A stretch of DNA of 64,000 nt, taken from contig CALIBQ010000025.1 of NCBI GenBank assembly GCA_938049385.1, positions 427-64,426 on the forward strand, written 5' to 3'. Each line of letters begins with the position of its first letter. The first letter of the stretch is position 1. The position numbers were made by a program, and so were the translations under genes. Source of the DNA: an uncultured Anaerolineae bacterium. Lineage in GTDB: Bacteria; Chloroflexota; Anaerolineae; JACIWP01. A model generated the notes under the pieces. It was not told the DNA's origin, searched no databases, and was given only the letters and a program-made list of their open reading frames with translations. Below are positions 49,187 to 52,627 of this stretch, piece by piece.

Positions 49187-50593
49187 CTACTCCCCTTTGC
49201 GCACCAGGATTTTCCGCCGGCGCAGGAACCCAGGAACGCCCCAGCCCCCCTCCGATACCAGGCCGTTCAGATAGCCCATGAAGAACCACAGCATCTTGTT
49301 GCCCACCATGTCGCCGCTGACCTGCGCGTTCAGCAGGGCGAAGAGGAAGAGCATCAGCCCGATGGCGGTATCCATGCGGGTGCGGGACGACGCATCGCGC
49401 AAGTACGGGACCGCTCCGAAGAAGGCCAGGATGAGGCCCAGGGCGTGCAGGAGCAGTCCAATGATACCGGTCTCGGAGGCAAATTCCAGGAACAAGTTGT
49501 GGGGATAGACCACGCCGGTGCTTTGCAGAACGTTGACCATGCCGCCCAGGCCGATACCCAATATGGGGTTCTGTCCGAACTGCTCCAGCGCGATTTGGTA
49601 CAGCGCCAGGCGAGTCTCGGTGCTGGCCTCGGTTTCGGGGTTGCCGGCGAAGATGCGGACGAAGGGCGAATAGGGGTTGACAGACGCCTGCTCGCCGGCG
49701 ATGGCGCGCAGGGCGAGAAAGCCGGCGCCGGCGACGAGTGCCATACCCAGGAACAGGATGAGCGATTCGCCGGCCGCCTGGCGCCGGCGGGCATACAGGG
49801 CGCGGCCCAACAGGGCAACGGCGATGATCAGCCCACTGGTGAAGAGGGGGCCGCGGGAACCAGTGAACACTGCCACAGCGAAGAATGCCATAGCTGCCGG
49901 CACGCGCACCCAGTACGAGGGGGTGGGCCACCACAGCATGACCAGGCCGGCGACACACAGCAGGCGCGAGGTCCAGATGGGATTGCCGCCGAAGGCGGTC
50001 AGCCGGCCGACAGCCTGTACCTGGGTCAGCGCCAGGCCTACGCTGGCGATGCCGGCCGCTCCCACCGGGATAAACCCATATACCAGCCAGCGCCGGCGCC
50101 GTGCCGGCGTCAGCGAGGCCAGCAGGAAGCCCAGCAGGTTGAAGCCGACGAAGCGCAGGAACTTGTCCAGCCCAGCTTGCGGTCCGCTTCGCAAGACACT
50201 GAGGCCCAGTACAGCGACCAGGGCATACGTGGCCAGCGCCAAGGGAGAGAGAAGTGCCCGATACACCAGGCGCCGGCGGAGTGCCAGCAGGACGTATCCC
50301 AACAGGGCGGCGCCGGCCAGCCCGAAGGCGAAGCCGCTTTCGATCGGAACGCCGATCAGGCGGGTGAAGGACTGCACGATGCCCAGCGCGTCCTGCATCA
50401 GCACGACGGCCAGCTCCGGCACCCACAGCAGGGCGACCGCCGGCAGTAACCCCAGCACCGCCAGTGCGCGCGCCGGCAGGGTCAGCATCATCGGCACGCT
50501 GATGCCAGCGATAATCGCGGCCGCCAGAATGGGCCAGTGTTTCGCGAGCCGGCCGGCGGGCCTGCCAGAGCGTTCAGCGCGCATGTTCCCCAC
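49187..50593 (-). CDS. O-antigen ligase/polymerase-family membrane protein (Wzy-like)
   Basis: 468 aa with about 11 TM helices and a large periplasmic loop containing RxxxG/Ser-Gly-rich stretches (FTGSRGPLFTSGLIIAVALLG), typical of the Wzy_C/O-antigen ligase domain. Confidence 0.7.
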   Translation of the reverse strand: MGNMRAERSGRPAGRLAKHWPILAAAIIAGISVPMMLTLPARALAVLGLLPAVALLWVPELAVVLMQDALGIVQSFTRLIGVPIESGFAFGLAGAALLGYVLLALRRRLVYRALLSPLALATYALVAVLGLSVLRSGPQAGLDKFLRFVGFNLLGFLLASLTPARRRRWLVYGFIPVGAAGIASVGLALTQVQAVGRLTAFGGNPIWTSRLLCVAGLVMLWWPTPSYWVRVPAAMAFFAVAVFTGSRGPLFTSGLIIAVALLGRALYARRRQAAGESLILFLGMALVAGAGFLALRAIAGEQASVNPYSPFVRIFAGNPETEASTETRLALYQIALEQFGQNPILGIGLGGMVNVLQSTGVVYPHNLFLEFASETGIIGLLLHALGLILAFFGAVPYLRDASSRTRMDTAIGLMLFLFALLNAQVSGDMVGNKMLWFFMGYLNGLVSEGGWGVPGFLRRRKILVRKGE

Positions 50594-51611
50594 CCAGTAT
50601 GAAGCTCATCTCGTGAATGCACTGCAGTAATCGGGAACGGTTGTAATGCGTGACCAGCACCGGCTTCAGGATGCCCCCTTCTTCCAGGACACTGCGGTGC
50701 AGTTGGGGGTAGTTGGCCGAGGCATGGTCCACCGTCCGCACCTCATTAGCCAGGGCGGCGATTGCTGAGAGAATCGTGAAGGTCGGGACCCCGTCGCGCA
50801 GAGAGCATGGGTGATTGGCGAACAGCCAGGTATAACAGCGGTGGGGGTCCAGCAGGACGATCAGGCCGCTGACCGGCTCGCCGGCGGAGGAGCGGGTGAT
50901 GAACAGCCGGGCGGTTCCATGCTCCGCCGCCACCCGATACATCGTCTCCAATTGGGAGGGGTTCAACGGCGTGTCCAGGCCGTGTCTGGCATAGGTGGCG
51001 CGGTACAGCGGCAGAAATGCGGAGATATCATCATCGGCTTGACAGCAGTATCCCAGCCCTTGCGCGCGTTCGAATGTCCGCCGGCGCGTCCGCGTCACAT
51101 TCCGCAGAAGCTGCCCCAGTTCTGCGGTCTCCCCCTCGTAGGTGAACCGCAGGGCGGCTTCCCATCCCCGCCAGCTCATACTGCGCACATCGGTAAGTTC
51201 CCAGCGGTGCGCGTGGAGCGTCTCCGCGTAATGGCGCTCGAGGTAGGAAGCCAGGGCATCGGTCACTTCCAGGGTATGTACCATCTGCCGGCGGTAGTTA
51301 GGCGTGTCCCGCCGGCGCACCACCATGCCGTTATACGGACAGGCCGGCGGGAAGAGGGCGCGCTTCCATGGGCCGGTCCGCCGCACGTACAGCGCGCATC
51401 CTCCCCACAGCATCCCCTTTCTGTCGAAACAGCCAACAATTTCCAGCCGGGCGCCGGTCAGCCGGCACAGGGCTTCCAGCCACCAGGAGGTCTGGAACAG
51501 CGTGCCGGTGGGGGATTCCCAGATCAGCGCGTCCCAGGCGGGGTATTCCTCGGGCGCCAGACAGCGCGCGGTATATCCTTTGCCAGTGATTTGTTCTGCG
51601 CCGCTGGTCAT
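50574..51611 (-). CDS. FemAB-like / GNAT-fold aminoacyl- or acyl-transferase (paralog 1)
   Basis: MTSGAEQITGKGYTARCLAPEEYPAWDALIWESPTGTLFQTSWWLEALCRLTG is collinear with the adjacent paralog. The start is trimmed (GGAGGAAGG about 8 nt upstream of the ATG at 51611). The ORF-track N-terminal 79 aa are rejected. Confidence 0.65.
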   Translation of the reverse strand: MTSGAEQITGKGYTARCLAPEEYPAWDALIWESPTGTLFQTSWWLEALCRLTGARLEIVGCFDRKGMLWGGCALYVRRTGPWKRALFPPACPYNGMVVRRRDTPNYRRQMVHTLEVTDALASYLERHYAETLHAHRWELTDVRSMSWRGWEAALRFTYEGETAELGQLLRNVTRTRRRTFERAQGLGYCCQADDDISAFLPLYRATYARHGLDTPLNPSQLETMYRVAAEHGTARLFITRSSAGEPVSGLIVLLDPHRCYTWLFANHPCSLRDGVPTFTILSAIAALANEVRTVDHASANYPQLHRSVLEEGGILKPVLVTHYNRSRLLQCIHEMSFILGGEHAR

Positions 51612-51613
51612 AT

Positions 51614-52627
51614 TCATCCTTCCTCCGGCTGGAAGCGGCCCATATGCCGCAGGGCGTGCAGAAAGCGCAGGGCCGGCGAACGGGTCAGCTCTGTGCGGGC
51701 GACCAGCCGCAGTTCGCCTCCCAGCAGGGCCGCACTGTAATGAAGGGAGTGCACATTGGCCGAGGCGTAATCCACCTCGCGGAAGCGCTTCGCCAAGCAT
51801 GCGAAGGTCTCGAAATAGGTAAAGACGGAGGCGCCCTGTTCCAACCAAGCAGGTTCGCTGGCGGCCAGCCAGAGCACGGCATTGCGCTGGGTCCAGAGCG
51901 CGACAGTGCCGCTGACAGCCTCGCCGGCGGGTGTGCGGGTCAGGAAGAGCTGAGCGGCCCCCCGCTCCCGGCCGGCGCGGTAGATGGCGGCGATGGCCGA
52001 CAGAGGGACGGGCGATTCCAACCCATGCCGGGCGAACGTCCGGGCATACAGCGGCAGGAACGCCTCGACATCATCGCATGGTTCACAGCGCAGGCCGGCG
52101 TGCTTCGCCTGCTGGACCATGGCCCCGCGCGTGCGCTCCGCCCGCCGGAGCATTTCCTCCGAACTCCCCAGCGGGAGGATATAGGTATAGCGCACCCGAC
52201 TGCGCCAGCCCTGCCAGACCAGCCCGCGCACATCCAACAGAGAGTAATGGTGGGTCAAATGCGCCTCATGAAAGCGCTGTTGTATCCAACGCCCGAGGCA
52301 GTCAGTCACTGCAATGGTGTGCATCACCTGCGTGGGGTAGGAATCGGTGTCCCTGGGTTTCACCACGATGCCGTTGTAGAGAGCGGTGGGAGGAAAGACC
52401 AGCCGGCAGAAGGGGCCGGTGCGCCGGCCGAACAGGGCACAGCCCCCCCACAGCACACCCTTGCGGAAACATCCGACGATCGCAAAATAGGCTCCCAGCT
52501 CCCTGGCCAGGGTGCCCATCCACCAAGTGGCCTGAAAGGGAGTGCCCGATGGCACGCTGTCCACCAGCGCATCCCACTGCGGATATTCCTCTGGAGTAAG
52601 GAGCCTTGCAGTGAATTCCTCGCTCAC
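51614..52627 (-). CDS. FemAB-like / GNAT-fold aminoacyl- or acyl-transferase (paralog 2)
   Basis: MSEEFTARLLTPEEYPQWDALVDSVPSGTPFQATWWMGTLARELGAYFAIVGCF...; about 40% identical by eye to paralog 1 throughout. Confidence 0.65.
   Translation of the reverse strand: MSEEFTARLLTPEEYPQWDALVDSVPSGTPFQATWWMGTLARELGAYFAIVGCFRKGVLWGGCALFGRRTGPFCRLVFPPTALYNGIVVKPRDTDSYPTQVMHTIAVTDCLGRWIQQRFHEAHLTHHYSLLDVRGLVWQGWRSRVRYTYILPLGSSEEMLRRAERTRGAMVQQAKHAGLRCEPCDDVEAFLPLYARTFARHGLESPVPLSAIAAIYRAGRERGAAQLFLTRTPAGEAVSGTVALWTQRNAVLWLAASEPAWLEQGASVFTYFETFACLAKRFREVDYASANVHSLHYSAALLGGELRLVARTELTRSPALRFLHALRHMGRFQPEEG

Follow-up and report, generated by a model that had tools for sequence, protein, structure and literature searches.

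A tandem pair of double-GNAT genes within a polysaccharide array

The 64,000-nucleotide stretch of contig CALIBQ010000025.1, from an uncultured Anaerolineae bacterium, that we analyzed here (hereafter, the window) carries two adjacent paralogous genes, which we call A and B, whose products most probably belong to the PF13480 (BioF2-like/CelD-BcsL/HfsK-type) branch of the Fem superfamily of double-GNAT proteins. Minus-strand translations of the open reading frames (ORFs) confirmed both genes at the positions, and with the N-terminal sequences, given in a preliminary description of this DNA, which had taken them for a tandem, diverged pair of FemAB-like paralogs. Together with the acetyltransferase gene that adjoins them, they are arranged as follows, in the direction of transcription:

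52624..53235, minus strand: classical single-domain GNAT acetyltransferase, directly upstream of A (PF00583; 203 aa in the related loci L001–L003)
51614..52627, minus strand: paralog A, Fem-fold double-GNAT protein, PF13480 (337 aa, GTG start, no transmembrane segment)
50574..51617, minus strand: paralog B, Fem-fold double-GNAT protein, PF13480 (347 aa; 345 aa from an alternative ATG at 51611)

Read on the minus strand, the junction between A and B is GAG GAA GGA TGA, with the ATG of B made up of the last base of GGA and the TG of the stop codon of A (ATGA); the stop/start overlap reported earlier is therefore real if B begins at this first ATG. A second ATG two codons on (51611) matches the starts of the orthologs and lies 9 nt from a GGAGGA Shine-Dalgarno-like sequence, a better spacing than that of the first ATG. 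This second start yields the 345-aa protein of the preliminary description, and with it A and B are separated by a 2-nt gap and do not overlap. Whichever start applies, the two genes are tightly coupled. The acetyltransferase gene had been described as following the pair; in the direction of transcription it lies upstream of A, since its TGA overlaps the GTG start of A (GTGA). The longest ORF for this GNAT reaches 53343, the 203-aa call being taken from relatives, and its product carries a canonical acetyl-CoA motif, RRQGIA, at residues 127–132.

Gene calling guided by GC content at third codon positions (GC3), combined with Pfam and NCBIfam scans, placed the pair within a 15-gene, same-strand Wzx/Wzy polysaccharide array. 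In order of transcription, the array encodes Wzz, Wzx, the GNAT, A, B, Wzy_C, a 325-aa protein that we call X325, three GT4 glycosyltransferases, Bac_transf, a PglD-like protein, two acidic proteins, and a DUF7033 protein, with intergenic gaps of -20 to +126 nt, over-long ORF calls excepted. The presence of Wzz, Wzx, Wzy_C, three GT4 enzymes and Bac_transf bears out the earlier view that this is a polysaccharide, not a peptidoglycan, cluster.

The two proteins are true paralogs, with an identity of 45% over 323 aa (E = 4e-96), which is far beyond chance. Three metagenome contigs (L001–L003) and one metagenome-assembled genome (MAG; L009) share the order GNAT-A-B-Wzy and, beyond it, the synteny of the entire cluster. 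Relative to the orthologs in L001, amino-acid identity was 87.5% for A and 82.3% for B, with dN/dS values of 0.130 and 0.144, respectively. The flanking glycan genes gave values of 0.12–0.23. Both copies are under purifying selection, and neither is decaying.

In a neighbor-joining (NJ) tree, the orthologs of A and those of B formed separate clades (bootstrap 98% and 100%). The grouping of A and B as sisters to the exclusion of P0009, a single-copy relative, received a bootstrap of only 38%, and we therefore do not claim that the duplication post-dates the split from P0009. P0009 comes from L007, a homologous but more distant cluster (identity 51% for Wzx, 48% for Wzy), where its gene directly follows that for Wzx and no GNAT gene is present. 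Between the A and B clades, 94 aligned sites were fixed alike and 45 were fixed differently, the differences being concentrated in a loop at B102–112 (net charge +4 in B, 0 in A) and at residues 311–332 beside the catalytic helix. The divergence noted in the preliminary description thus stands, in the form of these 45 clade-fixed differences; as for the different substrate specificities that it was taken to imply, the pattern and placement of the differences appear compatible with them.

Family placement, fold and active site

The only Pfam family to score above threshold was PF13480 (Acetyltransf_6; gathering score 22 bits), with 33.1 bits for A and 47.4 bits for B, and PF02388 (FemAB) matched neither protein at E ≤ 0.01. 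TIGR03019, the PEP-CTERM-associated FemAB family, was the sole NCBIfam model touched, at 32.1 bits for A (residues 17–292) and 15.3 bits for B against a curated cutoff of 260.35 bits. Profile searches, which had been put forward as a way to place the pair in either of the latter two families, thus led to PF13480 instead. The NCBI name of the A orthologs is "GNAT family N-acetyltransferase".

Indexed homolog searches found few relatives (9 and 16 matches), and a genome scan with a narrow alignment, A1, found 4 loci only. An exhaustive profile search at E ≤ 1e-3 recovered 3,703 cluster representatives, of which 214 reached E ≤ 1e-30; almost all were 320–350 aa in length and matched end to end. 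Among 80 sampled relatives, PF13480 was detected in 79, PF02388 in 54 and TIGR03019 in 73, the last two weakly. Because the relatives match PF13480, and many of them also match PF02388 or TIGR03019, the A/B family is placed by its sequence matches inside the Fem superfamily, yet without a specific curated model.

An AlphaFold2 model of B built from an alignment of 80 sequences (pLDDT 94.6, pTM 0.91) displayed two alpha/beta GNAT lobes; a run with a 10-sequence alignment (pLDDT 60, with the N-terminal half below 50) was set aside in its favor. When this model was compared with the PDB using Foldseek, FemX of Staphylococcus aureus (FemX_Sa; 1.6e-15), FemX of W. viridescens (FemX_Wv; 3.2e-14), FemA (1e-12) and Sba18/Sbb17 ranked first, and Sba18/Sbb17 gave the highest target-normalized TM-scores (0.79–0.81; Sba18, 0.81). 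Acyl-CoA tandem GNATs (2wpw, 7q3a) and MprF synthase domains followed below these Fem-type structures. Searched against PDB sequences, the family profile retrieved only FemX_Sa (1e-12), Sba18/Sbb17 (5e-12 and 1e-10) and FemX_Wv. A single-sequence match of B to the carbohydrate-binding module (CBM) of a cellulase in the PDB (E = 0.25) was discarded as noise. Going by the model, the term "FemAB-like" is correct at the level of fold and superfamily, and it is in this sense, that of a double-GNAT Fem fold with Fem-type PDB neighbors, that the original FemAB-family assignment holds; at the level of curated families it does not, with PF02388 giving no match and TIGR03019 scoring far below its cutoff.

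The secondary structure of the B model (347 aa) contained no coiled coil or long helical hairpin, and the helical insertion for which structure prediction had been suggested, as a sign of tRNA binding, was accordingly absent from it. Among Fem enzymes this coiled-coil arm is limited to the FemA/FemB/FemX_Sa subtype and is absent from FemX_Wv, so that it is not diagnostic of tRNA use. It had also been held that a match to plain, BioF2-like GNAT acetyltransferases with no helical insertion would refute a FemAB-type assignment. This combination is literally what we observed, but it is too blunt to decide the matter, because PF13480 proteins have the Fem fold and FemX_Wv, which has no insertion, still uses tRNA.

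The tRNA-dependent Fem enzymes possess one reactive active-site residue, Lys305 in FemX_Wv and Lys329 in DhpH-C, the latter of which follows Phe328 and is essential by mutagenesis, and they carry a basic tRNA-binding helix on GNAT domain 2 (2026 review, PMC12945691). The Phe-Lys motif sits on the helix preceding the last strand. In our alignments, the family consensus, iakFKsgFGGeL, corresponded to INRFKLGFGGEV of Sba18 (RFKLGFGG in PDB 9wqy). The same stretch reads LHRSVLEEGG in B, where S309-V310 take the place of Phe-Lys, and LHYSAALLGG in A, with no Lys in either. The pattern LH[RYHVE][SNHV][VAE]..GG, with an invariant Leu-His and no Lys, was shared by A, B, all of their orthologs, P0009 and P0010, and the residues at the Phe-Lys position across orthologs were Ser-Val in B and Ser/Asn-Ala in A. 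The narrow-clade profile A1 aligned to Sba18 (9wqy) only up to the residue before the Phe-Lys motif. In near-family sequences Lys was present in 106 of 185 and absent from 78, and the Lys-less sequences included the classes [FY]x..[FY]NP and F[FR]R.[FY]GG.

Both paralogs keep the basic helix that opens GNAT domain 2, which reads TRTRRRTFERAQ in B (net charge +5) and ERTRGAMVQQAK in A (net charge +4). A sequence-pattern test for the acetyl-CoA motif Q/R-x-x-G-x-G/A found none at beta4-alpha3 in A or B; matches off this position occurred at residue 220 of A (RERGAA) and at residues 9 and 184 of B. An alignment of FemX_Wv Lys36 with Leu50 of B came from an insignificant segment and was not used.

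The Fem fold points to aminoacyl-tRNA, but the canonical mechanism is made less likely by the missing essential Lys. The preliminary description had proposed that the pair uses aminoacyl-tRNA, and this proposal is weakened because neither paralog has the catalytic Lys of the Fem enzymes and the 64 kb window holds no tRNA gene. For the Lys-less clade, the donor that we hold likeliest is an acyl-thioester (acyl-CoA or acyl-acyl carrier protein, acyl-ACP), to which we would give slightly less than an even chance; aminoacyl-tRNA, used through a variant active site, is possible although we lean against it, and some other donor, or a non-catalytic role for one copy, appears rather doubtful.

Deacetylase linkage and candidate mechanisms

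Two further genes of the array encode probable or predicted carbohydrate deacetylases:

48203..49180, minus strand: X325, probable divergent deacetylase of the CE4/NodB type, separated from B by one gene on the downstream side (325 aa)
37496..39010, minus strand: DUF7033 protein with a CE4 polysaccharide-deacetylase domain, at the distal end of the array (504 aa; PF23019)

By itself, X325 had no Pfam match. Its family comprises at least 1,573 homologs, at about 45% identity, and 10 of 36 family members matched PF01522 (best 2.9e-6); residues D8, E10, D12, H75, H77 and R131 are invariant, and the family profile gave a weak match to the NodB-domain structure 8hfa over the Arg motif. The profile's top PDB match, 9iro, was rejected as an artefact of a His-tag/thrombin site. 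From these sequence features, X325 is probably a divergent cytoplasmic CE4/NodB-type deacetylase from a family without a dedicated model. In the DUF7033 protein, the C-terminal CE4 domain was identified by a profile match to the polysaccharide deacetylase 3rxz (E = 2.2e-10). Homologs of the DUF7033-CE4 protein recurred close to Fem-fold genes elsewhere:

L004, 10041-11498: immediately beside a Fem-fold gene (locus L004/L005; E = 4e-56)
L012, 8979-10436: immediately beside a Fem-fold gene, with a copy on each side (Acidobacteriaceae MAG; E = 4e-37)
L013, 9022-10377: immediately beside a Fem-fold gene (E = 2e-53)
L014, 9104-10816: immediately beside a Fem-fold gene (hhalign 99%)
L011: within 1.5 kb of a Fem-fold gene
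L006: weak match only

These loci are unrelated extracellular polysaccharide (EPS) clusters from several phyla, and distant members of the A/B family are likewise located in EPS clusters. The recurrence suggests that DUF7033-CE4 and Fem-fold PF13480 genes may form a conserved two-gene module, and the linkage of Fem-fold genes to deacetylases argues that a group other than acetyl is put back. Multiplicity of Fem-fold proteins is also seen outside the window, in the two copies of L012 and in P0013 (L008 4655-7261, 868 aa), which fuses two Fem-fold modules behind an N-terminal region of about 200 aa; both of its modules keep Phe-Lys.

Among systems already described, Caulobacter crescentus HfsK (CC3689), which has the paralogs CC2278 and CC1244, has been proposed as the enzyme that acylates the amines left by the deacetylase HfsH (PMC5362036). 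Compared by description, HfsK resembles A and B in being FemX-like, with two tandem GNAT domains, and soluble or peripheral on the cytoplasmic side, and in being tied to a Wzx/Wzy pathway with a cytoplasmic polysaccharide deacetylase in which several paralogs serve one glycan; the flippase of the window also has as its best NCBIfam match the holdfast flippase HfsF. In contrast to A and B, which are tandem and translationally coupled and are accompanied by an extra GNAT, HfsK is unlinked to its paralogs. Its C-terminal Arg-containing extension binds cyclic di-GMP, whereas nothing similar is evident in A or B, and it comes from Alphaproteobacteria rather than Chloroflexota. The Agrobacterium tumefaciens proteins UppA (BcsL/CelD-like) and its paralog UppQ (bioRxiv 10.1101/2021.04.22.440995) can similarly be likened by description to A and B, in that they are cytoplasmic, GNAT-type paralogs working for a single adhesive polysaccharide of the Wzx/Wzy kind, although their genes lie in separate loci, and Pseudomonas PapO is the product of a further Fem-like gene described in an EPS cluster (PMC7716237). 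The XrtA/PEP-CTERM protein of TIGR03019 is also EPS-associated, FemAB-like and about 330 aa long; unlike its members, A and B score far below the cutoff of the model, and a scan of approximately 45 window proteins revealed neither an exosortase nor a PEP-CTERM gene, although an exosortase could still sit in ORFs without a family match. HfsK, BcsL/CelD and UppA are presumably all members of PF13480, in keeping with how they have been described.

FemX, FemA and FemB of Staphylococcus aureus, together with FemX_Wv (PDB 6snr, 1lrz, 1ne9, 4ii9), share the double-GNAT fold and are the best structural matches, FemX_Wv resembling A and B also in its size and absence of a coiled coil; femA and femB are themselves tandem paralogs that act in sequence. 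Unlike these enzymes, A and B fall below PF02388, have no Phe-Lys and no helical arm of the FemA/FemX_Sa kind, and occur in an EPS rather than a peptidoglycan context. Sba18/Sbb17 and Orf11, from BD-12/streptothricin-type pathways (9wqy, 9wqw), share with A and B a compact Fem fold without a coiled coil, and the group that they modify is an amino-sugar amine (PMC12945691), in line with the chemistry proposed for A and B. They differ in acting on a small-molecule antibiotic intermediate with Gly-tRNA and in keeping RFKLGFGG, a motif lost in A and B. The pair is accordingly neither a strict FemABX pair, as judged by hidden Markov model, catalytic Lys and peptidoglycan context, nor a member of TIGR03019.

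We consider it reasonably probable, taking the model as a whole, that A and B are soluble cytoplasmic acyltransferases that serve the Wzx/Wzy polysaccharide of their operon by deacetylation followed by re-acylation. Sequence prediction gave no transmembrane-like segments in the GNAT, A, B, X325 or the DUF7033-CE4 protein, and these five modifying enzymes are therefore expected to act at the cytoplasmic face, before Wzx. The GT4 enzymes would build an amino-sugar-containing repeat unit on undecaprenyl diphosphate at the inner membrane face, and X325 and/or the DUF7033-CE4 protein would strip N-acetyl groups from it. A and B would then put acyl or aminoacyl groups on the amines thus exposed, at two different positions or one after the other, and the co-translated classical GNAT would add an acetyl group, after which Wzx would flip the unit and Wzy would polymerize it. 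We infer that the acceptor would be a deacetylated amino sugar on the lipid-linked unit, and that A and B would divide the labor between them.

Several points weigh against this model. The DUF7033-CE4 gene of the window does not adjoin the pair and lies 11.5 kb from it, and the assignment of X325 as a deacetylase is built on weak profile matches. Apart from the PglD-like acetyltransferase, the window has no amino-sugar precursor genes (aminotransferase, dehydratase). The active sites of A and B are judged from alignments, and literature searches gave no biochemical donor, acceptor or product for any EPS-associated HfsK-type member; the acylation role of HfsK is itself only proposed (PMC5362036).

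Of the alternatives, the one that survives best, although we doubt it, is that A and B are plain acyl-CoA-dependent O- or N-acetyl- or acyltransferases acting on the polysaccharide, with a Fem-like fold that is a relic without bearing on their chemistry. PF13480 as the one family above threshold, the NCBI name, the loss of the Fem catalytic Lys, and the CoA-using tandem GNATs (2wpw, 7q3a) among the structural neighbors would all fit such enzymes, and UppA/UppQ and PapO are called putative acetyltransferases in the literature. However, neither A nor B has a canonical pyrophosphate-binding motif at the expected place, and the CoA-type tandem GNATs rank under every Fem-type structure and were undetected by the sequence profile. 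Dedicated acetyl-CoA acetyltransferases are, moreover, already present in the operon in the form of the GNAT and the PglD-like protein, and the deacetylase linkage argues for a non-acetyl group being put back.

We regard it as unlikely, though deserving of weight, that A and B are aminoacyl-tRNA-dependent and attach first one and then a second amino acid to the lipid-linked glycan, a sequential addition like that suggested in the preliminary description, with the GNAT acetylating the new N-terminus. Tandem femA/femB would offer a precedent for sequential action, and a translationally coupled acetyl-CoA GNAT could well serve to cap the amino acid once attached. All of the closest structures and of the PDB sequence matches are aminoacyl-tRNA-dependent enzymes, one of these, of the Sba18/Orf11 type, aminoacylates an amino sugar (PMC12945691), the basic helix is kept with its positive charge in both paralogs, and neither has at beta4-alpha3 the canonical acetyl-CoA motif that is present in the neighboring GNAT. 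On the other side, the catalytic Lys after Phe is replaced in both paralogs and in all orthologs, the narrow-clade profile alignment to Sba18 ends just before this motif, and PF02388 fails to match A or B. The window, moreover, has no tRNA gene and no aminoacyl-tRNA synthetase (aaRS) paralog other than an ordinary-looking lysyl-tRNA synthetase (LysRS) outside the array. As further clues to the donor, an ACP, an acyl-CoA ligase, an aminotransferase and a dehydratase were also sought in the window, and none was found.

It seems improbable that A and B assemble into a single heteromeric enzyme, one or both of them being catalytically altered or non-catalytic and acting as a scaffold or substrate-presenting subunit. 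The stop/start overlap implies co-translation and matched stoichiometry, P0013 is a natural fusion of two modules, the canonical Lys is absent from both copies, and B evolves faster than A (82% versus 87.5% ortholog identity). Against such a division, purifying selection is equally strong on both copies, the 94 sites fixed alike in the two clades include the Leu-His motif and suggest the same kind of active site, and both modules of P0013 keep Phe-Lys. That these are true peptidoglycan-branching enzymes of the FemX type which stand in a polysaccharide cluster by chance is very improbable: fold and PDB neighbors would allow it, but PF02388 does not match, the genes are enclosed by those for Wzx and Wzy and have overlapping reading frames, relatives keep the entire cluster in synteny, and distant relatives are likewise located in EPS clusters.

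The deacetylation and re-acylation model can also be put in a bolder form, which we consider decidedly speculative. Here a Lys-less, His-bearing Fem offshoot with an invariant Leu-His, together with two CE4 deacetylases and an acetyl-CoA GNAT, would edit lipid-linked amino sugars by swapping N-acetyl for two different non-acetyl substituents, for example N-acetyl-aminoacyl or dipeptidyl groups. This would proceed via aminoacyl-tRNA in a new catalytic arrangement or via a donor new for Fem-fold enzymes, and DUF7033-CE4 with its Fem-fold partner would then constitute a cross-phylum deacetylation/re-acylation module.

The modification suggested for the pair had been expected to be rare and uncharacterised in this lineage. 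At the family level the first of these terms is wrong, given the 3,703 cluster representatives and the earlier descriptions of HfsK, UppA/UppQ, PapO and TIGR03019; the second is apt, in that literature searches gave no donor substrate for any EPS-associated member. A and B are a real, functional and fairly ordinary example of a widespread kind, with minor variant features, namely the tandem co-translated duplication with a GNAT and the clade-specific Leu-His in place of Phe-Lys. Because Fem-like genes in polysaccharide clusters are common and already in the literature, our findings are a modest refinement; they leave the classification of the genes unchanged, and no new system was discovered. 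EPS-associated Fem-fold double GNATs influence the adhesion and cohesion of bacterial polysaccharides, and to these the present locus adds a clear-cut tandem, co-translated pair whose members are each under purifying selection. The most useful by-product is the partnership with CE4 proteins, including DUF7033, a domain of "unknown function", which supports the deacetylate-then-re-acylate idea for the Caulobacter holdfast; loci that combine Fem-fold and CE4 genes are compact gene sets for biochemistry. Finally, some 40% of near relatives are without the Fem lysine, from which it appears that the catalytic helix has diversified and that caution is needed in inferring tRNA use from fold.

Other genes of the array and the window

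The remaining genes of the array with assigned families are these:

54916..56400, minus strand: Wzz/polysaccharide co-polymerase (PCP) chain-length determinant (PF02706)
53362..54906, minus strand: Wzx-type flippase (PF13440/PF01943; best NCBIfam match HfsF, NF050818, 127 bits, below cutoff)
49187..50593, minus strand: Wzy_C-family polymerase/ligase (PF04932; 9 transmembrane-like segments; 20-nt overlap with the end of B)
47023-48201, 45921-~47033 and 44756-45934, minus strand: three GT4 glycosyltransferases (Pfam GT4/GT1 domains; gene lengths as in relatives)
44049-44765, minus strand: initiating phosphoglycosyl transferase (small Bac_transf; PF02397, 237 bits)
43384-~44052, minus strand: PglD-like hexapeptide N-acetyltransferase (PglD_N + Hexapep; 222 aa in relatives)

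Between the PglD-like gene and the DUF7033 deacetylase gene (39026-43338, minus strand) lie the genes for the two acidic proteins, of 1038 aa (isoelectric point, pI, 4.8) and 414 aa (pI 5.7). Both proteins have an N-terminal hydrophobic segment and no Pfam domain. The larger one is conserved among relatives, and both may function in connection with the polysaccharide as secreted or surface proteins. A class II LysRS gene (34511-35998, minus strand), the sole aaRS gene near the pair, lies 1.5 kb past the end of the array, beyond greA, and is probably a housekeeping gene unrelated to the pair.

At the other end of the array, an ORF on the plus strand (56367-57734) is located between Wzz and a gene encoding a fusion of a glycosyltransferase group-1 domain with a C-terminal GAF domain (57807-59393, minus strand). 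The ORF has no Pfam match, is conserved (about 407 aa in relatives), and in its longest form overlaps the start of Wzz by 34 nt. The fusion gene stands beside a methyl-accepting chemotaxis protein (MCP) gene at the head of the cluster in L001 and L002, and its product may be a ligand-regulated glycosyltransferase.

A second glycan-related group (163-5178, minus strand) encodes a GT2 glycosyltransferase, a PMT_2 (ArnT-like) protein, and SPASM and B12-binding radical-SAM enzymes. The two radical-SAM ORFs overlap by about 340 nt as called, one start probably being mis-set, and radical-SAM genes like these accompany Fem-fold genes in L004 and L013. An 852-aa ORF (21690-24248, plus strand) combines a major facilitator superfamily (MFS) transporter with monogalactosyldiacylglycerol (MGDG)-synthase-like/GT28 domains, an unusual transporter-glycosyltransferase fusion. 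In the protein encoded at 62314-63858 (minus strand), the N-terminus covers a subtilase S8 domain only at that domain's C-terminal end, with PPC and CBM96 domains behind it; the protein is truncated unless its true start lies further upstream.

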